DNA of 64,000 nucleotides from Candidatus Latescibacterota bacterium (GCA_965200315.1 OZ241362.1:1184001-1248000); one strand, 5' to 3'; shown: positions 3,750 through 44,498, numbered from the stretch's first letter. A program made the numbers and translations. The notes: generated by a model not told the origin, from the sequence alone.

Positions 3750-5612
3750 CTAGGAGGCTGCCGCCTGCCTCTCCTCATGACTTGCAACCTCTTGTTGGTA
3801 AGCCAGCGCGGCCTCGACAAACCCGGCAAACAAGGGCGAGGGATTGTCCATCCGCGACTTAAACTCGGGATGGGCTTGGGTGGCGATGAAGAAGCGGTGC
3901 TCCGGCAACTCGATAAACTCCATCAAGCGAGTGCCGTCCACGCGACGGTGATACCCAGCAAAGACCAGCCCCTCCTCCTCGAGCAGTTCGACGAAGCGGG
4001 GCGAGACCTCGTAGCGATGGCGGTGGCGCTCTAGGGCAACTTTGTCGCGCTCCAGCATGACCAAGCCAACGCGGAACGCTTGGCCGGGATTGGCCAACAG
4101 TTGTTGGATGCGGCGGGCGTCTTCGTCGAGGCGACCCGACTCTTCGTAAATCTGGAGGACGCGGCTGTCGCTTTTGAACACCGCGGCATACGCGCCCAAG
4201 CGCATGCTGCCACCGTAGCGGTTTTCTTCTAGCGCGCTCTTTTGCTCGGCGTCTTGGACGCAGATGACCTTCCACTCGGAATCCGCGTCGAACTCTTCGG
4301 AAGTAGCCTCGGCGATCCCGGCAACATTGCGGGCGTATTCGATCACGGAAAGCTGCAAGCCATAGCACAGGCCCAAATAGGGGATGTTGTGCTCGCGGGC
4401 ATAGCGAATGGCCGCAATCACGCCTTCAGCTCCTCCCGCCCCAAAGGCCCCGGGGACGATAACGCCATCGAATGCGTCGAGAGCTGCTAGCTCCATTTCG
4501 CCGCGCTCAAACTGATGGCCGTCAATCCAAGTAATCTCGACCCGCGCATCCGACGCTACGCCAGCGTGTATCAGCGATTGGTTGACCGAAATGTACGAGT
4601 CCGTGAGCTGAAAGTCGCCCGTGGCCACGTATTTGCCGACCATGGCCACGCGGACACACTGCCGAGGATGCCGACTGCGCTTGACCAATTCCAGCCAAGG
4701 CCGCCAGTCTGGAGTCTTCTTGGGCACGCAGCCGACCCGGTTGAGGATCTTCTCGCCGAGCCGCTCTTTTTCCAAAACCAGCGGGATATTGTAGATCGTC
4801 TCCGAGTCCGGGGCCGAAATGATGTGGTCGTAGGGCACGTTGGCACCGATCTGGATCTTTTTCTTGCGCACCTCGTCGGTGGCGGTCTCGGCGCGACAGA
4901 CGATGAAGTCGGGGAAAATGCCGTGCTCGCTGAGCATGCGAATGGCCTGCTGAGTGGGCTTGGTCTTCATTTCGCCGACGTGTGGCGGTATGGGCAGATA
5001 GGTGATGAGCAGGTGTGCAAAGTGCTCCTCACCCAAGTCTCGCTCCAAGGTCTTTACGGCAAAGAGGAACGGCTCATTTTCGTAGTCGCCGACAATGCCG
5101 CCGATCTCGACCAACACGATGTCGTAGCCCGCGCCCGCCTCTTGCAAGCGGCGGGTGATCTCGTCTGTAATGTGCGGGATCGGCTGTACGGTCTCGCCGA
5201 GGTACTCGCCGCGGCGCTCGCGCTCGATTACTGTGAGGTAAATCTGCCCGGTGGTCAGGTTGTTGGAACGCGGCAGATCCAACCCCAAGAAGCGCTCGTA
5301 GTTGCCCAAATCCTGATCGATTTCGCCGCCGTCGTCCGTTACCCATACCTCGCCGTGCTCGGTGGGCCGCATGGTGCCGGCGTCGTAGTTGATATACGGA
5401 TCAATTTTGACGGCCGTGGTGCTGTAGCCGTATTGCTGCAGGATCTTGCCGATGGAAGCGGTGGTCAAGCCCTTGCCCACGCCGCTTATCACGCCGCCGG
5501 TCACAACGACGTATTTGGGGCCTTTGTATTCTCTGGCCACGTTGTGCGCTCCTTCGAGCTGCTCAAACAAAGAAGCGGCGACAGTGCCCTGCCTCCGCTT
5601 CTCAATAGTCAA
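3750..5612 (-). CDS. pyrG: CTP synthase
   Basis: VTGGVISGVGKG, KIDPYIN, EHGEV, KTKPTQ, GLCYGLQ, ERHRHRYE, QAHPEF motifs. Confidence 0.95.
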   Translation of the reverse strand: MTIEKRRQGTVAASLFEQLEGAHNVAREYKGPKYVVVTGGVISGVGKGLTTASIGKILQQYGYSTTAVKIDPYINYDAGTMRPTEHGEVWVTDDGGEIDQDLGNYERFLGLDLPRSNNLTTGQIYLTVIERERRGEYLGETVQPIPHITDEITRRLQEAGAGYDIVLVEIGGIVGDYENEPFLFAVKTLERDLGEEHFAHLLITYLPIPPHVGEMKTKPTQQAIRMLSEHGIFPDFIVCRAETATDEVRKKKIQIGANVPYDHIISAPDSETIYNIPLVLEKERLGEKILNRVGCVPKKTPDWRPWLELVKRSRHPRQCVRVAMVGKYVATGDFQLTDSYISVNQSLIHAGVASDARVEITWIDGHQFERGEMELAALDAFDGVIVPGAFGAGGAEGVIAAIRYAREHNIPYLGLCYGLQLSVIEYARNVAGIAEATSEEFDADSEWKVICVQDAEQKSALEENRYGGSMRLGAYAAVFKSDSRVLQIYEESGRLDEDARRIQQLLANPGQAFRVGLVMLERDKVALERHRHRYEVSPRFVELLEEEGLVFAGYHRRVDGTRLMEFIELPEHRFFIATQAHPEFKSRMDNPSPLFAGFVEAALAYQQEVASHEERQAAAS

Positions 5613-5896
5613 TCGATGATTCTCGGAACTTTGAAGTAATCCTCTTGTCGCTGCGGGGCCGCCGCGACGATCTCAGCCGCTGGGGGAAAGGGTGCTGCCT
5701 CGTCGCGGCGAAACGCGTTGGCGAGGGACAGCACGTGGGACGTTGGCTCTACGCCGGTGGTGTCTAGCTCGTTGAGCGTGTCCATGTAGCGCAAGATGCG
5801 GTTGAGTTCTCCGACCAGCCTTTCTTCCTCTGCGGGCGAAAAGCGCAACCGCGCTAACTCGGCGACCCCGTGGACCTCTTCTATAGTAACCGCCAT
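5609..5896 (-). CDS. gatC: Asp/Glu-tRNA amidotransferase subunit C
   Basis: VAELARL...LNELDTTGVEPT...FRRD...YFKVPRII, 95 aa. Confidence 0.93.
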   Translation of the reverse strand: MAVTIEEVHGVAELARLRFSPAEEERLVGELNRILRYMDTLNELDTTGVEPTSHVLSLANAFRRDEAAPFPPAAEIVAAAPQRQEDYFKVPRIID

Positions 5897-33916: not shown

Positions 33917-34978
33917 TCAAGCGTTACTACCCTTATTCCCGAGAAAACGCCAGCGCGCACCCGGGCCTCGGCCGCTGCAAGCTACATCGCCGGATTTCTT
34001 TAGCTCCGCTAAAAGAGTGCGAATCCATTCGCGGCCGACGCCGGGACAGGCATACTCTATGTCACTCAGGCGGAATTCGCCCGGTTGGGCGCGGATGGCG
34101 GCGAGCACCAGCTCGGACTTGGCACCCCGTGGAGCCTTGATCTGACCGGCGCGTTCCTCCAACCCGACGTAAGCGCGGCGGATGATCGCAAAGAAGAAAT
34201 TGAACCAAGGCGTCAGTTCGTGTTTGCCGTCGTGCCAGCGCTGTGAACTGAGCCGGAGGCATTCGTAGTAGGACTCCCGGGATTCCTCAATAAGGCGTTC
34301 CAAGCTGATGTAGCGACCAACCTCGTAGCCGTGCTGGTAGAGCGCCAACAGGGTGAGCAGCCGGGACACGCGACCGTTGCCGTCCCGGAAAGGATGAATG
34401 CAAAGGAAATCCAAGACGAGAGCGGCGATGGCGATGAGTGGTGGGATATTCTCCTGGTCAATAGCGTGCTGGTAATGCTGACAGAGTTGTTCTACAGCCG
34501 CCGAGGTCTCCGCAGCCTTCACGCAGCGGAACCGGACCACCGGGGCCTGTCCGGGCAGGAACTCCACGATGTCGTTATCGACTCGTTTGAATTGGCCCGC
34601 GTCGCCGCTGGCGGATTGGCAAAGAGCATGTAGGCGTTGCAGGGTATCCGGCGTGATAGAAAGAGCGGCGTAGTCGGAGTGAATTTCGTTCAAGGCGCGG
34701 CGATAGTCCTGAATCTCCTGCTCGGAGCGGTCGCGGGGTTTGGCTTGGCCGAGCACCAGCGGGTAAAGACGGGCTTGAGCGACCGTCACTCCCTCGATGC
34801 GATTAGAGGATTCAGCACTCTGAATGACAGCTATGTCGCGGAGCGCTTTGAGCGCTTGTGGCGACTGGCGCGTGAATAGCTCCTGTTTGCCCCTCGACTC
34901 GGCGATGTCGTTGAGCAACCACACCGTGCTCAGGGGTGTTTCGTGGTCGCGTAGGCGGTTGTTGCGGAAAGAATTCAT
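33917..34978 (-). CDS. Fic family protein with N-terminal inhibitory motif and C-terminal HTH-like region
   Basis: HPFRDGNGRVSR Fic motif; SNRIEG matches (S/T)xxxE(G/N). Confidence 0.92.
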   Translation of the reverse strand: MNSFRNNRLRDHETPLSTVWLLNDIAESRGKQELFTRQSPQALKALRDIAVIQSAESSNRIEGVTVAQARLYPLVLGQAKPRDRSEQEIQDYRRALNEIHSDYAALSITPDTLQRLHALCQSASGDAGQFKRVDNDIVEFLPGQAPVVRFRCVKAAETSAAVEQLCQHYQHAIDQENIPPLIAIAALVLDFLCIHPFRDGNGRVSRLLTLLALYQHGYEVGRYISLERLIEESRESYYECLRLSSQRWHDGKHELTPWFNFFFAIIRRAYVGLEERAGQIKAPRGAKSELVLAAIRAQPGEFRLSDIEYACPGVGREWIRTLLAELKKSGDVACSGRGPGARWRFLGNKGSNA

Positions 34979-35084
34979 GGTTTGAGAGGAGATTCAAAGC
35001 GCAAGCAAGTTCTGGCTGAGCCGGGGATATGGACGATGCCGTTGAACTGGTACCCTGAAGATAGCACGGATACCCGAAACACGT

Positions 35085-36050
35085 CTATAAAAAATGTTTA
35101 CCAGCATGATCTGTAAACGAATCAGCGTCGCGGATGTATTGCATGACCGTGGCCGGGTTAGTGTGGCGGGTGACGGCCATGATTTTGTCTAGTCGGGCAT
35201 GATGCACTGCCGCGCTGGTGACAAAACCTGCCCGCAGGGAATGCCCTGCTACTTCTTTGGGGTCCAGTCCGATCCGTGCAGCATAGTGCTTGACAAGGCG
35301 TGGGATATCAGAATGGTGCAGCGGCTTGCCTTGCACATGGCCACCACGCTTCATCGTCTGAAATAGTGGGCCGCACATGATCCCCGACGCATTAAGCCAC
35401 ATCTGAAGACGATGGACAGGACGGATAACACGGCCGTCCAAGATGGCGATTTTTTGCCCCCTCCCCTGTTGATCCGTCTTGGAGTGCCGGATGGTAAGAA
35501 ACATGCGCTGACTCGCTTCCTCTGTAGGTTCAAAGAACTCAACATCCTCTACGGTCAGACCGCATATCTCCGAGCGCCGCAGGGCACCCGCAAAGCCGAG
35601 GGCCAAAATAGCCGCGTCGCGCCGCCCGATGGTCGTATCAGCACATTGAGAAAGCATGGCTTGAATATGGTATTCCCTGAGTGCTTCTACTCGACGACAC
35701 GCGGTACCTTTGAGCCGGGCCAACCCTTTGAGGGTGGCACGGACCACGGGATGATTGGTCGGAGACGACTTTCCGGCGTCGGTATATTTCTTGTTGATGG
35801 CACTCTTATAGAGCGTCACAGTGCCCATAGATAGCACGGTACCGTGCTGGCTCGGCTTTGTCGCTAGATGCACGAGAAAACGCGCTACCATATCCGGGGA
35901 GGCAGATAACGGGTCGTCAAGATGCTCTTTTGTGCAGTAGTTGGTGAACCTAGACCATCCTTTTTCATAGGCAACGCGGGTATTTGTCGCCAATGCGGAG
36001 GAAAGGACATTGGTATGGAAACCTTGCTCAATCATGGCTGAGGATCTCAA
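35085..36050 (-). CDS. Cre-like tyrosine site-specific recombinase
   Basis: RDAAILALGFAGALRRSE, SKTDQ, GHSLRAG, TRH, QYIR catalytic set; TTG start at 36050 behind AAGGAG. Confidence 0.92.
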   Translation of the reverse strand: MRSSAMIEQGFHTNVLSSALATNTRVAYEKGWSRFTNYCTKEHLDDPLSASPDMVARFLVHLATKPSQHGTVLSMGTVTLYKSAINKKYTDAGKSSPTNHPVVRATLKGLARLKGTACRRVEALREYHIQAMLSQCADTTIGRRDAAILALGFAGALRRSEICGLTVEDVEFFEPTEEASQRMFLTIRHSKTDQQGRGQKIAILDGRVIRPVHRLQMWLNASGIMCGPLFQTMKRGGHVQGKPLHHSDIPRLVKHYAARIGLDPKEVAGHSLRAGFVTSAAVHHARLDKIMAVTRHTNPATVMQYIRDADSFTDHAGKHFL

Positions 36051-36096
36051 TGGTAACTCCTTTGTTAGGGTTTTAGTGTCTTGAAACTTGCAAGAT

Positions 36097-36864
36097 ATGA
36101 CCGAACAACATGATATTGCCATTTATCGAGGAGTTCTTACTGGTTACAATGACGCCTTTATCATTGATAACAACACTAAAGAAGCATTGATCGCCGAAGA
36201 TCCACGCTCTGCCGACATCCTCAAGCCTGTGCTGCGCGGACGGGATATAAAACGCTATCGGGCAGAGTGGGCAGGCCTGTGGCTAATTGACACACACAAC
36301 GGGTACGGCAGTGTTACGGCTGTCGATGTAGATGAATACCCAGCCATCAAAAATCATTTGGACCAGTTCTATTTCCAACTGAAAAAGCGGCAAGATAAAG
36401 GTAGGACACCGTATAATCTTCGTAATTGCGCTTACCACGAAGTATTTGAAAAGGAAAAGCTGGTGTGGATGGATCTGACGGAACAAGGACGGTTTGCGTA
36501 TGACGTGGATGGCCTGTTCTGCTTAAACACGGCATTTATTATGTCAGGTCCATCAATCAAATATTTATGCGCCCTGCTTAATTCTAATCTGATAACTTGG
36601 TTTATGAGAAACACTGCTCTGAGTTCTGGAATGGGTGTTACGAGATGGATTAATGCTTCCGTAGAATCAATCCCCATTCCGAAAATCACTATAGAAGAGC
36701 AACTTTCATTCATCCGGTTGGTTGACCGTATCTTGAAGGTCAAAATATCTAACCCAACAGCCGATGTCAGCGATCAGGAGACAGAGATAGACCGCCTCAT
36801 CTATGCCCTCTATGGTCTGAAAAAAAAAGAAATCGCAGCGGTATCAGTAAAGGACAAATCATAG
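36097..36864 (+). CDS. Alternative (inverted) target-recognition-domain cassette for the adjacent MTase-TRD gene, TaqI_C-like
   Basis: Homologous to C-terminal ~260 aa of 36923..40543 (DIAI, GYNDAFIIDNNTKEALIAEDPRSADILKPVLRGRDI, CAYHEVFEKEKL, KYLCA.LNS.LITW); no MTase motifs. Confidence 0.88.
   Translation: MTEQHDIAIYRGVLTGYNDAFIIDNNTKEALIAEDPRSADILKPVLRGRDIKRYRAEWAGLWLIDTHNGYGSVTAVDVDEYPAIKNHLDQFYFQLKKRQDKGRTPYNLRNCAYHEVFEKEKLVWMDLTEQGRFAYDVDGLFCLNTAFIMSGPSIKYLCALLNSNLITWFMRNTALSSGMGVTRWINASVESIPIPKITIEEQLSFIRLVDRILKVKISNPTADVSDQETEIDRLIYALYGLKKKEIAAVSVKDKS
36112..36123 (+). repeat. IR1 left arm (12 bp)
   Basis: gatattgccatt, exact reverse complement of 37694-37705; same reading frame (DIAI) in both copies. 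Confidence 0.75.
36157..36283 (+). repeat. IR2 left arm (127 bp)
   Basis: Reverse complement of 37534-37660 with 9 mismatches by hand count; includes 29-bp and 33-bp perfect blocks. Confidence 0.92.
36426..36462 (+). repeat. IR3 left arm (37 bp)
   Basis: ttgcgcttaccacgaagtatttgaaaaggaaaagctg, exact reverse complement of 37328-37364. Confidence 0.92.
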
Positions 36865-36922
36865 GTAAATCAAATTCTAAACGGCACCAAAACATAGTTT
36901 TATGAGCCGTCACGTTGATCGT

Positions 36923-39900
36923 CTAGGGTAGAAGATGCTCCTCTACTGCGAATATCTCCGTCTCCGTCAGTCCGTACAATTCGTAAACCTGCATATTAAT
37001 TTTGGCTTCAGTGGCAGATACATCGGCTTCCGGGTTAGTCGCTTTAGCCTTCAGGATACGGTCAACTAACCGGGCAAAAGGATGCTGCTTTACGGTAGGG
37101 ACTTGGGGAATAGGCAGGCGTTCTACCACAAATTTATCCCATTGGGTGAGTCCCATACCAGTCGTTACTGCGGTGTTCCGGACCTGCCAAGTTATGAGGC
37201 GACTATTCAAAATCGCACAGAGGTATTTGAGAGAATTTCCAGTGACAACAAATGCCTTTTGGTTGCAGAAAATAGTCTCCGAGTCGGAATATGCGAATCT
37301 GCCATTTGGTGCCATGTGCATCCAAAACAGCTTTTCCTTTTCAAATACTTCGTGGTAAGCGCAAGTATCCTGTAATTCGTACCAAGTATGCACAGTCTTT
37401 TTTCTTGATTTAGTGCCATTCGGAAGGGTTCTGCCCGATTGTTCTAATCTCGCTTCGCCAAAAGATAGCAGGTGTCTTTTCACGGCTGGATAGTCATCAA
37501 TGTTGAGTGCGAGAGCAGGAAATGTTGCTATCGGCCACAGGCCTGCCCACTCTGCCCGATAGCGTTGAATATCTCGGCCTCTCAGCACAGGCTTGAGGAT
37601 ATCGGCAGAGCGTGGATCTTCGGCTATCAACGCTTCTTTAGTGTTGTTATCAATGATAAAAGCATCGTTGTAGCCCGTCTTAATTCCGTAGTTAATGGCA
37701 ATATCCCACTCTTTCAGCGGCGTTCCCGCAGATTCCATCTTATCCATAATGCTCTGTTCAATGACCGATAGCGCACTCCACGGCTTTTCACCTTGCGGAC
37801 GCAACGTTCCCCACAGGGATTCGTCGGGTGGAAAGGTTTTATCGGACAAACGATCCATGTCCACGGCCTTGCCGATTTCATTACTCTTGCCATTGCGTAC
37901 TATCAGGACATTGGTATCCACAATGGCTTTTTCAAAAACATCTTTGCCCATTTCCAGCAGGCGCATCGGCGTGTGATGCTCAAAGAAGTAGCGGCGCAAG
38001 GCTTTGCCGTACTCTGCCTTGAGCCAGCTATTAGATGTGATATAGGCCAGCAAGCCTTGGGCTGGTTTGAGCAGCCGGCAGCCGCGCTCGTAGAAAAGCT
38101 GGTAAATGTCGCCAGTGCGGGCGAACGTTGCGTAGCCAGCATCCTTGTAGAGCTTGCCCAGTTCGCCGCTGTTTTTCTGCAATTGAATGTACGGCGGATT
38201 CCCGATCACCACATCAAACCCATCCTCCACTCCAAACATATACTCAGCGTCGAACCAACCCGCTTTCTCATTCTGGTCGTAGGGATCCCACCGCGCAATT
38301 TTACTAGCGTCATCTTCGGGAAGGCCGGCGGAAATCAGTTCCTTTGCCAATGCCTTACGCAACCGTTTGTCCTCATCTCTACAGGCCAGTTTTTTCCGGC
38401 GCGTGGTCGCGTGAAAATGCCGCTCGCGATTTTTCACCAAGTTTGTTTTCAGGGCCTCTATTTGCTGACGGAACAAGTCTAATTGATCCGCTTCCTCGAT
38501 TCCCAACAGCGTGTTCGCCGCCACAAAGCGCGTCTCCAGATTCGGCAGCGGCTTGATGCCAAAGTTCTCGACAGCCGCGTCGGCTTCCTGCTCAATCGCC
38601 AGCGAAATGAAAAAGCGCAGTTTGGCGATCTGGCAAGCGACCGGCTGAATATCCACGCCAAATATGCTGTTCTGAATCAAGTATAGCTTGCGCCCAAAAT
38701 CGCCCGAATACCGCTCGAAAATTTCGCTGATTCCGGTTAGTTCGTCATTGCGTTCCTGTTGATTCCGGGTATCGAAAGCCGCCGCGGCTCGTTGAGTAGC
38801 GCGCTCCTTTTGCAATGCCTGCCAGCGTTTATTCTCAGGGTCAATCCGCTGCAACGCCAAGGTCAGCTTGTGCAGTATGCCTATCGGAAACGCACCGGAA
38901 CCGACCGCCGGATCAAGCACCTTGATCTCCGCAATCGCCCGCACAATGCTCTCGGCTTCGGCTTCTTTAAAAAGTTCATTGGCATCATCAAATGCGTCTT
39001 CATAATCCAACAAATAGCGCAAACGATCTCGCCAGCACACCGCGCCGCCATCGTCGGGCTGCGCTCTTTCCGCCAGCGCTGCCACCAACGCCTCCTCCAC
39101 CATGTAATCCACCACAACGCGGGGTGTATAGTACGATCCAGTCTGCTTGCGCGCTGTCTCGCGGGTCTCTGGATTGTAGGCCGCCAGCAAGTTCTCAAAG
39201 ACCTTGCCGAGCAGTTCCGGGTCCAGAGCAACCTCCTGCTCCGCGGGCGTGTTTTCCTCCACCGTGAATTTGTAGTGGTTGAGCAGGGGAAATAGGCCGG
39301 CGGCGTCAAAAAATAGCCGGTTGGGAATGGACAAAAGCCCGTATTCCTTAGTGCCGGGTTTGATTGCGTTGTCGGAAAAGCAGTCAACGCGCCAGCCGCC
39401 ATAGCGCGTCGCTTCCTCGCTGTCCAAACAATCGAACAAGCCGCCGTTGATGAATGGGGTCTGGGCGAACAGGCCCAGCAGCGCATCAGGATCGCTAATC
39501 TCCCGTTTGTAGCGATACAAAGAAAAATTGCGGTGCGTGGCGTTTTGCGCTTGACTGAACCCACGTTTGTCGAGCTCGGTGTTCAGGGTGGCGAAAAACA
39601 GGTTTTGCAGCACCGCACGATAGTAGGAATCGCCGGTGTCGCGGTTGTAGTTTTTTAGCAGCAGGCGGATTCGTGCCTCGACGAACAGGTCGCCGGCAGT
39701 CAGCCCCTTCTCCTTCATAAACCAGACGAACAGCAGGCGCGTGATGAGGCGAATGACGTGCTCTTCGGCGGGCAGGGTGCGGGCCTGAGCGGTGGGAAAC
39801 CGGGCCTCGCCGACGGCGCGATCAAACCAAGTGAACAGCTCCCGGTAAAACCGTCGGTTGAGCTCTTCGGTGTCCAGTTTGTCTAACCACGCAGCCAGCA

Positions 39901-40543
39901 GGCCATCAAAATTGTGCGGCTTGTCGTGAGCATCCATCCACTCGGCACATTCGGCTAGCGACAGTTCGGCCAAAACATCCAAGTGGGCGCGATGGGGGCT
40001 GCCCGGGTCAATTTCCCGTATCAGCGACACATGGCCTAGCACATCGCGCCTTGGGTCGCGCTGGTGCTCGCGACGATGTACAAAGGCCAAGGTGAGCTTC
40101 TTATCGGCGGTTCTGAACAAAACGACCGAGGGTTGGACCAAGCGCTTGTTGAGCTCGCGGGTGAACTGCGCGTACTGGCCACGTGCGTAGGTTGCTTCCT
40201 TCAGTTCCACGGCGAAGAAGATAAAGCTCTGCTGCCGTCCCTTGTCGAAAAAAGCGGCCGTAAACCCAAACGCCGGCTGATTAGTTGAGGCGATTTCGTC
40301 GCTAGTAAACTGAAAGACAAGCCGCACGGATTGGACGTTTTCGCAGAAGGCCTGCTCCGTTTTGGTGTTTCCTTTCTCGGCGGGGAACTGCGCGATGAAG
40401 TCGGCAACATCGCCTGTCTGCTCAGGCAAGGTGCGCTCGCTGCGGTAGCCAAGAACAGCCAGTACGTCTTGCGTTGCCGCGGCAAAATCGCCCTGCGGCA
40501 TGGCCGCAAGAACGGCGCGTACATCCTCTTTTATGCTGCTCAT
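36923..40543 (-). CDS. Type IIG/Eco57I-like N6-adenine methyltransferase with C-terminal TRD
   Basis: LLGKVFENLL, TGSYYTP, LDPAVGSGAFP, PLPNLE, GFDVVIGNPPY, TaqI_C-like C-terminus; ATG overlaps helicase stop (ATGA) with upstream GAGG. Confidence 0.92.
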   Translation of the reverse strand: MSSIKEDVRAVLAAMPQGDFAAATQDVLAVLGYRSERTLPEQTGDVADFIAQFPAEKGNTKTEQAFCENVQSVRLVFQFTSDEIASTNQPAFGFTAAFFDKGRQQSFIFFAVELKEATYARGQYAQFTRELNKRLVQPSVVLFRTADKKLTLAFVHRREHQRDPRRDVLGHVSLIREIDPGSPHRAHLDVLAELSLAECAEWMDAHDKPHNFDGLLAAWLDKLDTEELNRRFYRELFTWFDRAVGEARFPTAQARTLPAEEHVIRLITRLLFVWFMKEKGLTAGDLFVEARIRLLLKNYNRDTGDSYYRAVLQNLFFATLNTELDKRGFSQAQNATHRNFSLYRYKREISDPDALLGLFAQTPFINGGLFDCLDSEEATRYGGWRVDCFSDNAIKPGTKEYGLLSIPNRLFFDAAGLFPLLNHYKFTVEENTPAEQEVALDPELLGKVFENLLAAYNPETRETARKQTGSYYTPRVVVDYMVEEALVAALAERAQPDDGGAVCWRDRLRYLLDYEDAFDDANELFKEAEAESIVRAIAEIKVLDPAVGSGAFPIGILHKLTLALQRIDPENKRWQALQKERATQRAAAAFDTRNQQERNDELTGISEIFERYSGDFGRKLYLIQNSIFGVDIQPVACQIAKLRFFISLAIEQEADAAVENFGIKPLPNLETRFVAANTLLGIEEADQLDLFRQQIEALKTNLVKNRERHFHATTRRKKLACRDEDKRLRKALAKELISAGLPEDDASKIARWDPYDQNEKAGWFDAEYMFGVEDGFDVVIGNPPYIQLQKNSGELGKLYKDAGYATFARTGDIYQLFYERGCRLLKPAQGLLAYITSNSWLKAEYGKALRRYFFEHHTPMRLLEMGKDVFEKAIVDTNVLIVRNGKSNEIGKAVDMDRLSDKTFPPDESLWGTLRPQGEKPWSALSVIEQSIMDKMESAGTPLKEWDIAINYGIKTGYNDAFIIDNNTKEALIAEDPRSADILKPVLRGRDIQRYRAEWAGLWPIATFPALALNIDDYPAVKRHLLSFGEARLEQSGRTLPNGTKSRKKTVHTWYELQDTCAYHEVFEKEKLFWMHMAPNGRFAYSDSETIFCNQKAFVVTGNSLKYLCAILNSRLITWQVRNTAVTTGMGLTQWDKFVVERLPIPQVPTVKQHPFARLVDRILKAKATNPEADVSATEAKINMQVYELYGLTETEIFAVEEHLLP
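37328..37364 (-). repeat. IR3 right arm
   Basis: Inverted copy of 36426-36462. Confidence 0.92.
37534..37660 (-). repeat. IR2 right arm
   Basis: Inverted copy of 36157-36283. Confidence 0.92.
37694..37705 (-). repeat. IR1 right arm
   Basis: aatggcaatatc, inverted copy of 36112-36123. Confidence 0.75.
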
Positions 40544-43527
40544 GTTGTCTCTTTCCTCGTGCTCATTGTCAAGAGGGTGCCGACTCTCTGTAAAATTGCA
40601 TCTACTGTCTGCGTGGGCAAAGAGCATATAAACGCTGTATTTCTTGCCCGCCAATCCATACTCTTGACTTGATCTGTTAGAATAACGCCCGGCACATCCT
40701 GCCTCTCGGGCATGGCGACTTCAAAGGGATACCCTTTCACGTGACTGGTAACTGGGCAAAAAATCGCCAAACGGGTCTTGCTGTTATAAGCCCTCGGTGA
40801 GAGTACAACGGCGGGGCGACGGCCACCTTGCTCATGCCCTGCTTGCGGATTGAAGTCAATCCATACGACATCGCCGCGCTGTTTTAGCTCCATCTGAATC
40901 GACTCAGATGGGTATTCGTTTAACGGATCGTCGTCGCCGCTAGCGGTGGCGTCCGCCAAGGCCATGCGTGCTTGTACGCGGCTTTGCAGGCGCAGATAAA
41001 CCTCGAGGTCCTTGGTAGGCCAATAGTTAATCATCCACACCGACTGGTTGCGGCTGCCGATGCGGTCAATGCGCCCTAAGCGCTGAATGATACGCACTGG
41101 ATTCCAGTGGATGTCGTAGTTGAGTGCGGTATCGCAATCCTGAAGGTTCTGCCCCTCTGAGATGCAATCGGTGGCAATCAGCAAGTCGATTTCGTCGGTG
41201 CTATTGGCCTGCCCGTGTGCCCGTGGCGCGAAGAGGGTCAGAATGGCGTTGAAGTTGTTAGGACCGAAAGCGGTGCGCGTTGCGTCCCCAGAGACCATCG
41301 CCATGTTCAACCCCAATTCGTGCACCAAGTCCGCCAAGTTTTCGTACAGATACTCCGCCGTATCCTTGAAGGTGGTAAACACCAGCAGCTTGCGGTTGAT
41401 CCGGCCATCCTTGTCGGTCGTCGGGTGTTGTGCTCTGTCCCGAATGTGCGCCTTAATCTCTCGCAGCTTACCGTCCCGTTCCGGCGTGATAATACTGACC
41501 CGTTCATAGACCGCCTCCAGAGTCTTCTTATCCTTCAGCAAGTCCTCTTTCCAACGGGGCAAATCCAACTCGCGCAGATGGTAGGGGGTGCGTGCCCGAT
41601 TGATCTGAAATTCCTCGTCATCTTCATCGTCATCCGGGAGGGTATCCGCTCGCTCGTCCAACAGCAGGTTTTGCTCATAGCGGTCTATCTTTTCTAGCAG
41701 GTCGTCAATTTTGCCGATAGTGCGCTTGAGCGTTTCCGTCAGAGAGTGGGCCGAACTTTCTAGGCGTTTCAGAAAGTTGACTCGTATCATACTGATGAGG
41801 AAACGCTCGCGGTCAGCCTGATTAAACCGCAGTTGCTTCTTTTCGTCCGCCAACCGTTGCTTGGCTTCGGGGCTGGTAACATAGCTTGACGGCCGGTAAA
41901 TGGATAAGGCGAACTGCTCAATTTGCGCGGATAATTTTTTGTACGAAAGCTCGTCCTCTAAATCCGTCAGCGGGTAGCAATTCTCCGGCTGTTGCCGCGT
42001 GGGGAACTGACCGATCCGGTCTATTTCTTCGGCGTAGAATTGCTTGATCTGCCGCCGTGAGCGAGCAATGGAAATGCCGCCCAACAGCTTAAAAAAATCA
42101 GCACCCAACGTCTCCAGTAACGTCGTCTTGTCTTTTTTGACACTCTTCTCCGCTTTCGTCTCCCATGCCTTAAACTCCTTTTGCGCCTGACCTAAGAGCG
42201 TGCCGATATGGCCGATGCCCAGACTTTCCCGGAACATGTCCTCGCGCTTTTCGGTCATCAGATAAATTTGATTGCGGAGGTCAATAAGCGAGGTGTTGAC
42301 CGGCGTCGCTGAAAGCATCAGCACCTTCGTTTGGGTTCCAGCCTTGATGACTTCTTCTAACAGCCGCGAGTAGCGGCTGTGGCGAATCCTGCCGTCTTCG
42401 TCGAGACGAGACTTGGAGTCATTGCGAAAATTGTGAGATTCGTCGATGACCACCATGTCAAAATTGCGCCAGTTGAACTGGGCCAGATCAATGTCGCCGG
42501 CTTGCCCACTGCTGCGGGACAAGTCCGTATGCGATAGCAAGGTGTAGCCAAAGCGGTCTTCGAGGAAGGGATTGCCAGTTCGGGCGTTATATGCTGGATA
42601 CAGCGCCCAATTTTCGCGCAACTTTTTGGGGCATAACACCAGCACTCGTTCGTTACGCAATTCAAAGAACTTGATAACCGCTAACGCCGTATAGGTCTTT
42701 CCCAAGCCGACCGCGTCGGCCAAAATACAGCCATTGTGCCGCCGCAGGTGAGCGATCACGCTCTTAGCTCCGTCTTTTTGGAAGTCGTACAGCGCGTTCC
42801 AGACGGCGGTATCGTATAGGTGTGTATCTTTTAGGTGGCTTTCGCCGGCTTTTCTCGCTTCGATGTCTTCCTGGAACAACTCGTAGAGCGTTTTATAGTA
42901 GATCAACTCCGGCGCGTACTCTCTGCCTATCCGCGCCAGCGCGTCCAGCACGTCCTTTTTGACATCCTTGGTCAGCGTCTTGTCCGCCCACAGATCGTCA
43001 AACCATTGTTGTAGTTCGGTACAAGTAGCTGCGTTTTGGGTTGCCAAGTTGATTTCCACGTTGGCACTCGTCCCGCTGCCTAGACCGCCGCGAGTAAAGT
43101 TGGAGCTGCCAACCACCGCTGTGCCGCCATTGGCTGATTCGGTGAGATACATCTTGCCGTGCAGAAAGTTGGATTTGCCAATGGAGCGAATTTTGACGCC
43201 TTTGCTGCTTATCCATGCTGTGCATTGACGAGCAAGGTATTTCTGTTGCAATGCGTACAGAGGCGATAGCCCGTCTTCAGTCAGGTTGAAGGCTTTTTGC
43301 GCTTTCTCGCCGGGGTCTAACTCGCCAACCGATGCCGGATCACCAAAGAGAAAACGCACATCCTTAACACCGTTCAATTCGCTTTGCAGGGCCTCGTACC
43401 CATAAATGGTGAAATACGCCGAGACGAGGCGAAACACCTCAGCGGCTGACAGGTGCGGCCGCAAATAATCGACAACTCGACGCTGGCGATTGTCTAGGAT
43501 GTGTTCGATGTGTTCGTATTCTGCCAT
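40540..43527 (-). CDS. PLD(HKD)-nuclease / SNF2-like SF2 helicase with in-frame C-terminal MazF/PemK domain
   Basis: LHGKMY...GSSNFT (PLD); LADAVGLGKT, IDESHNFR, LSATPVN, SEGQNLQ, HWNP..IIQRLGRIDRIG (SF2); QRGDVVWIDFNPQAGHEQGGRRPAVVLSP..YN...DQVKSMDW (MazF). Confidence 0.88.
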   Translation of the reverse strand: MAEYEHIEHILDNRQRRVVDYLRPHLSAAEVFRLVSAYFTIYGYEALQSELNGVKDVRFLFGDPASVGELDPGEKAQKAFNLTEDGLSPLYALQQKYLARQCTAWISSKGVKIRSIGKSNFLHGKMYLTESANGGTAVVGSSNFTRGGLGSGTSANVEINLATQNAATCTELQQWFDDLWADKTLTKDVKKDVLDALARIGREYAPELIYYKTLYELFQEDIEARKAGESHLKDTHLYDTAVWNALYDFQKDGAKSVIAHLRRHNGCILADAVGLGKTYTALAVIKFFELRNERVLVLCPKKLRENWALYPAYNARTGNPFLEDRFGYTLLSHTDLSRSSGQAGDIDLAQFNWRNFDMVVIDESHNFRNDSKSRLDEDGRIRHSRYSRLLEEVIKAGTQTKVLMLSATPVNTSLIDLRNQIYLMTEKREDMFRESLGIGHIGTLLGQAQKEFKAWETKAEKSVKKDKTTLLETLGADFFKLLGGISIARSRRQIKQFYAEEIDRIGQFPTRQQPENCYPLTDLEDELSYKKLSAQIEQFALSIYRPSSYVTSPEAKQRLADEKKQLRFNQADRERFLISMIRVNFLKRLESSAHSLTETLKRTIGKIDDLLEKIDRYEQNLLLDERADTLPDDDEDDEEFQINRARTPYHLRELDLPRWKEDLLKDKKTLEAVYERVSIITPERDGKLREIKAHIRDRAQHPTTDKDGRINRKLLVFTTFKDTAEYLYENLADLVHELGLNMAMVSGDATRTAFGPNNFNAILTLFAPRAHGQANSTDEIDLLIATDCISEGQNLQDCDTALNYDIHWNPVRIIQRLGRIDRIGSRNQSVWMINYWPTKDLEVYLRLQSRVQARMALADATASGDDDPLNEYPSESIQMELKQRGDVVWIDFNPQAGHEQGGRRPAVVLSPRAYNSKTRLAIFCPVTSHVKGYPFEVAMPERQDVPGVILTDQVKSMDWRARNTAFICSLPTQTVDAILQRVGTLLTMSTRKETT

Positions 43528-43582
43528 ATCAGATAGGGAAAGAAGTGAATAGGCTTTCAATTGCTTAGTGATTGTCTAGCAC

Positions 43583-43601
43583 CTAGGCAACCCGCAACCA
43601 G
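43583..43601 (+). repeat. Right imperfect direct repeat of island
   Basis: ctaggcaacccgcaaccag vs 33865-33883. Confidence 0.5.
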
Positions 43602-43610
43602 CTTTCCACG

Positions 43611-44498
43611 TCAAAAGCGCAGCAATTCCCCCTCGCCAAACACGAGCAAGTCGGCCCAGATCGCGGCAAAGTAGATCAGGCTAACCGTGCTGTTGACCGT
43701 CATAAAAGCCGTGCTCAAGCGCGACAGGTCGTCGGCTCGCACCAGCCGGTGCTCGTACACCAGCAAGCCAGCGACTACTACTACCCCCAACCAGTACAAA
43801 AGGCTCAAGCCGGCCGCACGGCCCACGAGAAGCAACAGCACCACGAACAATAAGTGTAAGGCGCGGGCGATGTACAAAGCGCGGGCAATGCCAAAGCGGA
43901 CCGGGATGGAATGGAGTCCAGCCCGGACGTCAAAGGCGCGATCTTGGCAGGCGTAGATGATGTCAAAACCAGCGACCCAAACCAGCACCCCCAAGCAGAG
44001 CAGCAGGGGGATGGGATCAAAGCTACCAGTGACCGCAATCCAAGCGCCCAGCGGCGCCCCGCCCAAACTCAGCCCCAACACCAAATGAGAGGCCCAAGTG
44101 AAGCGCTTGGTCAGCGAGTAGAACAAGAGCACGGCCAAAACCAACGGCGACAGATAAAAGCACAGCGGGTTGAGCAGGTAAGCTGACAAGACCAACATTA
44201 GGGCGGACAAAACCACAAACAACCCCACGGCCCGAGGCGAGACCACGCCTTGCGGCAGCTCGCGGTTTTGGGTGCGGGGATTGGCCGCGTCGAGGTGGCG
44301 GTCAACGAGGCGATTAAAACCCATCGCCGCGCTACGTGCCCCTACCATAGCCAGCGCGATCCAGCCGATCTGGGCCGGGGTAATGCCCGTGTACGCGGCG
44401 GCCAGCAAGGCACCGCTAAAGGCAAAGGGCAGGGCAAAGACGCTGTGGGAGAATTTGATCATGCGGCCGTACACCGCAATGGCCTGCAAGAGAGCCAT
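43611..44498 (-). CDS. UbiA-like prenyltransferase of futalosine pathway (MqnP-type)
   Basis: IKFSHSVFALPFA, ARSAAMGFNRLVD..D..NPRT, GFDIIYACQD. Confidence 0.88.
   Translation of the reverse strand: MALLQAIAVYGRMIKFSHSVFALPFAFSGALLAAAYTGITPAQIGWIALAMVGARSAAMGFNRLVDRHLDAANPRTQNRELPQGVVSPRAVGLFVVLSALMLVLSAYLLNPLCFYLSPLVLAVLLFYSLTKRFTWASHLVLGLSLGGAPLGAWIAVTGSFDPIPLLLCLGVLVWVAGFDIIYACQDRAFDVRAGLHSIPVRFGIARALYIARALHLLFVVLLLLVGRAAGLSLLYWLGVVVVAGLLVYEHRLVRADDLSRLSTAFMTVNSTVSLIYFAAIWADLLVFGEGELLRF

Follow-up and report, generated by a model that had tools for sequence, protein, structure and literature searches.

A helicase-MazF fusion in a sponge-associated Latescibacterota defense island is probably the by-product of a deletion that removed the antitoxin gene

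How does an endoribonuclease toxin come to be joined in frame to a restriction helicase, and how do the cells that carry it persist with no antitoxin gene nearby? The question is raised by a 64,000-nucleotide stretch of a Candidatus Latescibacterota bacterium genome (GCA_965200315.1 OZ241362.1:1184001-1248000; the whole stretch is here called the window), in which a 1006-amino-acid open reading frame (ORF) at 40540..43560 on the minus strand joins an HKD-nuclease/SNF2 helicase in frame to a complete MazF/PemK domain. An initial annotation, made from the sequence alone, had offered three options: a sensor-effector fusion of the kind represented by PrrC and RloC, an in-frame deletion that took out the helicase tail together with mazE, and a nested start that yields free MazF. 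We favor, at a probability of roughly 0.8, the reading that the window carries a deletion allele of a defense island and that the fusion is a loss-of-function by-product, tolerated through low-level, tethered MazF. That the fusion arose by deletion is more probable still.

The fused gene belongs to a compact island on the minus strand of 33917-43560, set between housekeeping genes: a UbiA prenyltransferase and menaquinone genes lie from 43611 up, and a GDP-mannose dehydratase gene and others lie below 33809 (Table 1). The stop codon of the mazF part (TGA, 40542-40540) overlaps the methylase start codon (ATG, 40543-40541) as ATGA, an overlap already pointed out in the initial annotation, and the ribosome-binding motif of the methylase (GAGGAAAGAG) lies within the last mazF codons. 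PADLOC identified the methylase as REase_MTase_IIG (E 1e-137), a match that covers residues 617-1201 only, its methylase and specificity parts. The recombinase, the inverted TaqI_C copy, and the repeats shared with the methylase 3' end, together at 35085-37705, look like a programmed-inversion specificity switch.

Table 1. Coordinates of the features of the island, the fusion, and the deletion joint within the window
Feature	Position	Strand	Basis
Fic-domain protein, far edge of the island	33917..34978	-	Fic E 1.1e-16; PADLOC SoFic E 4.2e-37
Tyrosine recombinase beside the spare specificity cassette	35085..36122	-	Phage_integrase E 3.3e-14
Silent inverted spare copy of the methylase specificity domain	36088..36864	+	TaqI_C E 2.3e-17
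Inverted repeat	36112-36294/37523-37705		183 nt, 85%
Inverted repeat	36423-36501/37289-37367		78% over 79 nt
N6-adenine DNA methyltransferase, Eco57I/Type IIG-like, with TaqI_C specificity domain, 1206 aa	36923..40543	-	Eco57I E 8.8e-35; TaqI_C E 3.9e-12
ATGA overlap of MazF stop and methylase start	40540..40543	-	sequence
mazF without its nine opening codons (in relatives, MVxSTEYVP) and intact beyond them; residues 894-1006	40540..40882	-	PF02452, free MazF, PDB
Deletion joint in the Lys893 codon (AA/A)	40882..40884	-	alignment A1, DNA alignment A3, contigs
HKD (PLD-type) nuclease and SNF2 helicase gene	40883..43560	-	Pfam PLDc_2, SNF2-rel_dom, ResIII, Helicase_C; PADLOC
Hairpin with 8-9 bp stem, ATG 40893 in the 3' arm, ending 6 nt from the joint	40889..40912	-	71-nt fold -22.5 kcal/mol, z -2.4

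The N-terminal part of the fusion has the makeup of an HKD+Snf2 protein, with a PLD/HKD nuclease domain at its N terminus (PLDc_2 at residues 110-191), SNF2 ATPase lobes (SNF2/ResIII at 257-421), and a Helicase_C domain (722-835). PADLOC assigned the protein to 'HKD+Snf2' (PDLC01075, E 1.5e-100), and the H-x-K and GSSNF motifs are invariant in the helicase alignment (A1). The homologs begin (MAEYEH...) at an ATG 33 nt downstream of the TTG listed as the start, and this ATG is likely the true helicase start. After the helicase, in frame as the initial annotation had stated, residues 894-996 match nearly the whole PemK_toxin profile, PF02452 (positions 1-108 of 109; E 1.2e-26, 93.4 bits; curated cutoff, 23.1 bits).

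The same annotation had described a near-complete MazF fold with the conserved Arg and Thr, and closer comparison confirmed this. The MazF part is 71-74% identical to the free 117-aa MazF proteins of same-genus genomes and matches solved MazF chains at E values from 2.9e-34 to 1.5e-24 (7d28, E 2.9e-34; E. coli MazF 1ub4/5ck9, E 2.1e-25). In the E. coli chain (5ck9_A/1ub4_A), R29 and T52, which we take to be its catalytic residues, are the aligned counterparts of R915 and T938, whose columns are 98-100% conserved among 66 relatives. Across the columns that are at least 90% conserved in these 66 relatives, the majority residue is retained in 40 of 41, the sole difference being A912G. The MazF part begins where the Kid toxin naturally begins (1m1f aligns from chain residue 2). 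By sequence the MazF RNase domain of the fusion is intact; its endoribonuclease activity is a prediction. As in the mazEF (chpA) and pemIK modules, the C-terminal 113 residues make up a full MazF/PemK domain. Unlike in those modules, MazE is absent from both the window allele and the genome, the module's own upstream region is deleted, and 892 helicase residues stand in place of nine native N-terminal residues.

The initial annotation had also reported that the island holds no antitoxin ORF, and we reached the same result. Among the ORFs of the window, no small MazE-like ORF lies between the helicase-MazF gene and the methylase gene, and the cognate antitoxin directly upstream that marks a mazEF module is missing from the window allele. 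The genome has two PF04014 matches, both elsewhere and each beside an ORF that by eye resembles a PIN toxin; a search of the genome with the MazE of same-genus mazEF pairs returned nothing (best E 1.07). These PF04014 and cognate-type MazE searches of the genome revealed no substitute antitoxin. The same genome also contains a second, distant PemK-like gene with its own small ORF ahead (G000:C1:3885703-3886020, L002). Ordinary mazEF pairs are present at other chromosomal sites in genomes of the same genus; in these pairs an 80-aa MazE (PF04014) overlaps the start of a 117-aa MazF that begins MV(R/K)STEYVPQRGD; the window MazF lacks exactly the first nine of these native residues. Relatives of the MazF part on metagenome contigs are at most 71% identical. 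MazE accompanies MazF in 77 of the 80 loci of the closest metagenomic relatives, and none of these 80 MazF genes lies next to a helicase or methylase homolog.

Where the helicase part ends was evident from its homologs. Same-genus full-length helicases (1086-1098 aa) are 88-92% identical to the fusion over residues 9-896, and in alignment A1 the window protein tracks its relatives (67-88% identity) as far as ...SESIQMEL. Past this point the window reads KQRGDVVWIDF..., whereas all full-length relatives read NFRDEQL... and run on for about 195 more residues. The comparison with unfused homologs that the initial annotation had called for thus shows that the conserved C-terminal tail of about 195 residues is missing from residue 893 on, and the helicase gene ends after codon 892 and two letters of codon 893. 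An AlphaFold2 model of the lost tail, built from a 10-sequence alignment, had a mean pLDDT of 46.3, too low to give a usable fold. According to the available part of PMC12839542, related helicases carry an inactive restriction-endonuclease fold and an alpha+beta domain at the C terminus; since that source also describes occasional natural loss of these domains, a truncated helicase need not be dead. Split or stop-containing helicase copies were found in 5 of the 13 relatives with orthologs at least 73% identical (G023:C1:52583-56538, G029:C1:3597448-3600100, G034:C58, G035:C1:1866078-1867932, and G040:C5:2113718-2116405). The G023 copy has about 1.3 kb inserted. Two metagenomic homologs (P0001, 998 aa, and P0011, 959 aa) stop early in the tail and share the same odd C terminus, and the genome of the window encodes a second HKD/SNF2-type helicase paralog at 47% identity (G000:C1:5108385-5111030).

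If the fusion were a shared architecture, other proteins should join the same two parts. The 120 best of 7,999 scored homologs of the whole protein, mostly 1072-1110 aa long and covering about 75-88% of the query, all lack PF02452. Conversely, searching the MazF part against word-indexed proteins of 553-1761 aa gave 39 candidates, none of which scored; the longer proteins with a similar MazF number eight, all of 206-252 aa and none with helicase domains. An exhaustive phmmer search of 1.84 billion representatives, with residues 801-1006 as a query covering the two parts, gave 9,463 hits. The best 150 each match either the helicase piece or the MazF piece, none both, and the top score of 145 bits is about one piece's worth. 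Two of these 150 hits have a second matching stretch, namely, a 234-aa MazF-type protein and a 1115-aa helicase with 115 bits in total. No helicase-MazF fusion appeared in the accessible portions of the literature on MazF with restriction-modification, helicases, or domain fusion. The search for further helicase-MazF fusions that the initial annotation had proposed was therefore negative within these sets, and by these comparisons the fusion is not a conserved architecture or family trait.

The joint itself is abrupt. On the gene strand, ...GAG CTA AA of the helicase is followed directly by A CAG CGC... of mazF, the AA coming from a helicase Asn codon and the A being the last letter of a mazF Pro codon (CC, then A). 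We compared this site with public sponge-metagenome data: nine runs are listed with the stretch, seven of which contain at least half of the sampled words, and contigs of four (three DNA, one RNA), which drop rare variants, were compared over 39500-42500. Two forms occur between 40882 and 40883, the direct joint of the window and a form with 1117 extra letters. The extra letters lie between sequences with no letters common to both sides, and no direct repeats or microhomology were found around the joint. In run X1 (study P1), the direct form is a 60-nt joint contig at depth 108.2 and the long form is a 1177-nt contig at depth 53.6, made up of 30 letters on either side of the joint and the 1117 between, with flanks at 132 and 153. 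In X2 (study P2), the direct and long forms have depths of 12.5 and 14.2 and the flanks 29.1 and 27.9. Added together, the two forms account in both runs for roughly the depth of the flanks. X4, from another sample of P1, has no direct form listed and holds the long form in a single 4418-nt contig at depth 37.8, with 11 other letters over the 2303 positions compared, none of them in mazF. In the RNA library X5, a 650-nt contig that starts 30 nt before the joint holds the direct form (depth 8.0) and a 345-nt contig the long form (8.4). In two studies the full allele is no more abundant than the deletion allele, and the undeleted allele still lives in the same sponge-associated populations.

A polymorphic locus such as this can confuse assemblers, and the joint might then be absent from any DNA molecule. 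We give this almost no credence. The initial annotation had asked for a misassembly check at the junction, and the exact junction is present in contigs of independent public runs: the 60-nt contigs of X1, at a depth of about 108, and of X2, at 12.5, consist of joint-spanning words only and come from two studies, the X5 contig crosses the joint as well, and the depths of the two forms add up to those of the flanks. The mazF body is one unbranched contig common to both alleles in X1 and X2, and so mazF has undergone no compensating change.

What the extra 1117 letters contain can be read in part. The long-form contig of X5 exits the window at 40882, and its 30 visible insert letters translate on the gene strand as ...EVW-stop overlapping GTG-VKSTEYVP, followed by QRGD, which matches a mazE terminus running into the native mazF start, as in the same-genus mazEF pairs; the end of mazE thus overlaps the start of mazF in the long allele. 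The helicase tail accounts for 622 nt up to its stop codon in four same-genus genomes, and the stretch that opens with the mazE ATG and closes at the Pro codon for 262 nt; together they take up 884 of the 1117 nt and leave a spacer of about 233 nt. The equivalent distance in a genome of another family of the same class (G032) is 904 nt. With 30 of the 1117 letters visible, we infer from size and homology that the helicase tail lies within the insert. The long-form contig of X5 reaches only 315 letters into the insert (about mazE and some 50 nt) and has no connection there to the helicase tail, which hints only weakly at a separate mazEF transcript from the long allele, as contigs cannot show RNA ends. 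The fusion may likewise be transcribed, given that X5 contigs hold the joint; DNA carryover is possible, and contigs show neither strand nor level.

The gene order expected of such a parent exists elsewhere, as G032 has a full helicase of 1079 aa, then mazE (PF04014) 17 nt after the helicase stop, mazF, and the methylase, so that on sequence evidence a mazEF pair is lodged between the two genes. The G032 mazF (L013 450-617) has an in-frame TGA two codons past the conserved Thr, and its mazE looks intact. We surveyed the same slot across the helicase family, which is present in 79 loci of metagenome-assembled genomes (near-identical genomes left out) from Latescibacterota, Poribacteria, Binatia, Gemmatimonadota, and others. 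A methylase homolog follows the helicase in 73 loci. The distance from helicase tail to methylase start is 60 nt or less in 22 of these, 61-199 nt in 12, 200-999 nt in 28, and at least 1000 nt in 11. Measured from helicase stop to methylase start, the slot ranges from 9 nt to more than 4 kb (73 loci; L107-L185, tail ~5001-5645; also L009-L011). The longer slots contain 69 ORFs, which a Pfam scan assigned to HTH_3 (7), AIPR (4), ParA-like AAA_31 (4), Schlafen AlbA_2 (4), Gp49-like toxin (4), 'addiction module antidote' dnstrm_HI1420 (4), HigB-like toxin (2), and Transposase (1); PemK was found in none of the 69. Among the contents are HigB/HTH pairs, Gp49-like toxin and antidote pairs, and Schlafen-AlbA_2/ATPase and ParA-like genes, and mazEF occupies the slot only in G032 and in the window's population. 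Judged by these tenants, the slot is where toxin-antitoxin and abortive-infection genes tend to land, with mazEF a rare occupant. In another genome of the same genus (G004; L009/L112), the helicase lies at the syntenic place by the UbiA gene, and a 578-aa AIPR gene separates it from the methylase.

We propose that the ancestral order was HKD-nuclease/SNF2 helicase, mazE, mazF, and N6-adenine methylase and that a 1117-bp deletion without microhomology began within helicase codon 893 and ended at the final letter of codon 10 in mazF. Lost with it would be the helicase C-terminal tail of about 195 residues, the spacer (where the mazEF promoter presumably lay), the whole of mazE, and nine codons of mazF, with the reading frame retained by chance. 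Of the options in the initial annotation, the in-frame deletion of helicase tail and mazE is the one borne out, by the missing tail, the gene order of G032, and the coexisting allele that is 1117 letters longer. The chimera would then be a by-product of a loss-of-function event in a restriction gene rather than an evolved sensor-effector. Carriers would survive because MazF is no longer produced above the low level of the restriction gene and stays attached to a truncated protein of 890 residues; that its RNase is then too weak to stop growth is pure conjecture. Our best guess at how the toxin is tolerated without MazE is that, within a dead restriction gene, it is weakly expressed or attenuated. 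Scanning 36800-43800 for promoters gave 2 promoter-like sites, no excess over the 4.0 that chance alone predicts. As for the methylase, it has its own ribosome-binding motif and should remain functional.

The high frequency of the deletion allele was unexpected, given an intact toxin without mazE, and it leaves room for a selected function. Such a function, in which the truncated nuclease-helicase masks MazF until phage attack or the allele is addicted to the full allele in polyploid cells, seems unlikely to us; if real, it would amount to a one-polypeptide toxin with a built-in guard made by a single deletion, or to a natural balanced toxin/antitoxin heterozygote. We hold it just as doubtful that the deletion allele depends for its persistence on the full allele being present too, perhaps on other chromosome copies of a polyploid symbiont cell, with MazE made from the full allele neutralizing the fused MazF in trans, so that losing every full copy would poison the cell. 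This explanation shares the deletion origin and differs only in the reason for tolerance. It would fit the observations that the joint is seen only in runs that have the full allele too (X1, X2, and the RNA run X5), that the sole single-form DNA run (X4) has the full allele, and that allele depths are of a similar order in two studies (2:1 and about 1:1) with mazF identical in both. However, the pattern comes from three DNA runs only, with contigs that lose rare variants, and mixed strains in a sponge population would look just like two alleles on the chromosome copies of one cell.

In an evolved sensor-effector, the truncated nuclease-helicase would keep MazF latent and free it for abortive infection when restriction is blocked. 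MazF is indeed intact and follows in frame on a stretch that is acidic and probably flexible, two studies show the allele at high frequency, and the helicase-methylase slot of relatives often has toxin-antitoxin or abortive-infection genes; the part of PMC12839542 available to us describes RNase 'backup effectors' fused to BREX-related core proteins, such as HEPN fused to a DUF499 ATPase. We nevertheless regard this option as improbable: the searches for a second two-part protein, whether among proteins of 553-1761 aa, among the longer MazF proteins, or among the best 150 of 9,463 hits, found none, and the domain kept by full-length homologs is lost. Moreover, the joint is blunt, lies within two codons, and has its parental allele still present, which points to a very recent event and not to a selected architecture. 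Slimmer again is the chance that the fusion is irrelevant and that translation from ATG 40893 gives a free 117-aa MazF (MELKQRGD...). This ATG is in frame, stands four codons ahead of the conserved RGD, and would start the product about where the Kid toxin starts. Yet it encodes Met890 of the helicase itself, a residue shared by 7 of 8 aligned homologs, it is paired in an 8-bp hairpin, and no GGAGG-like motif lies upstream, whereas the methylase start does have GAGGA; a free MazF without antitoxin should also harm more than a tethered one. The sensor-effector and nested-start options of the initial annotation are thus both disfavored, and a deletion by-product remains our preferred reading.

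PrrC and RloC are separate anticodon-nuclease polypeptides held latent by a Type I enzyme, inside the hsdMSR locus, and are defined by an ABC-ATPase-like N domain and an anticodon nuclease domain. The window resembles them in having an RNase toxin within a restriction-modification locus. It differs in that Pfam gives PemK, another RNase family, and the neighbors are not hsdM, hsdS, or hsdR; its toxin would have come with its own antitoxin and have been linked to the helicase by deletion. Closer parallels exist for the helicase-methylase pair. In the accessible portion of Milman et al. 2023 (PMC9881135), a PLD(HKD)+SNF helicase gene lies by a Type II/IIG-like methylase with programmed inversion. 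The window shares this adjacent gene pair and the spare inverted specificity cassette with a recombinase by the methylase; compared with the loci in that portion, it differs in the toxin-antitoxin pair that would have lodged between the genes and then been half deleted, and its inversion is predicted from sequence. Type-2 BREX-related systems, as presented in the part of PMC12839542 at hand, have an HKD endonuclease N-terminal to a Swi2/Snf2 helicase, an N6-adenine methylase, and embedded RNase 'backup effectors.' The window has the same HKD-Swi2/Snf2 helicase and N6-adenine methylase core, but DUF499 ATPase and DUF3780 genes are absent from the island and neighboring ORFs scanned (25684-47591). 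MazF occurs nowhere in that part of PMC12839542, whose supplementary locus and effector lists, like those of PMC9881135, might hold MazF cases.

The interest of the locus, which we rate as moderate, lies in a natural experiment and not in a new defense architecture. What appeared to be such an architecture would become a dated evolutionary event whose parent and product alleles are both present in wild populations, and it serves as a warning for domain-fusion mining in metagenome-assembled genomes, where one deletion can mimic an 'effector fusion.' The experiment that it offers is in how a cell loses mazE yet keeps an intact mazF. For the wider family, the slot between helicase and methylase in this widespread sponge-symbiont module would be a place where toxin-antitoxin and abortive-infection cassettes land.
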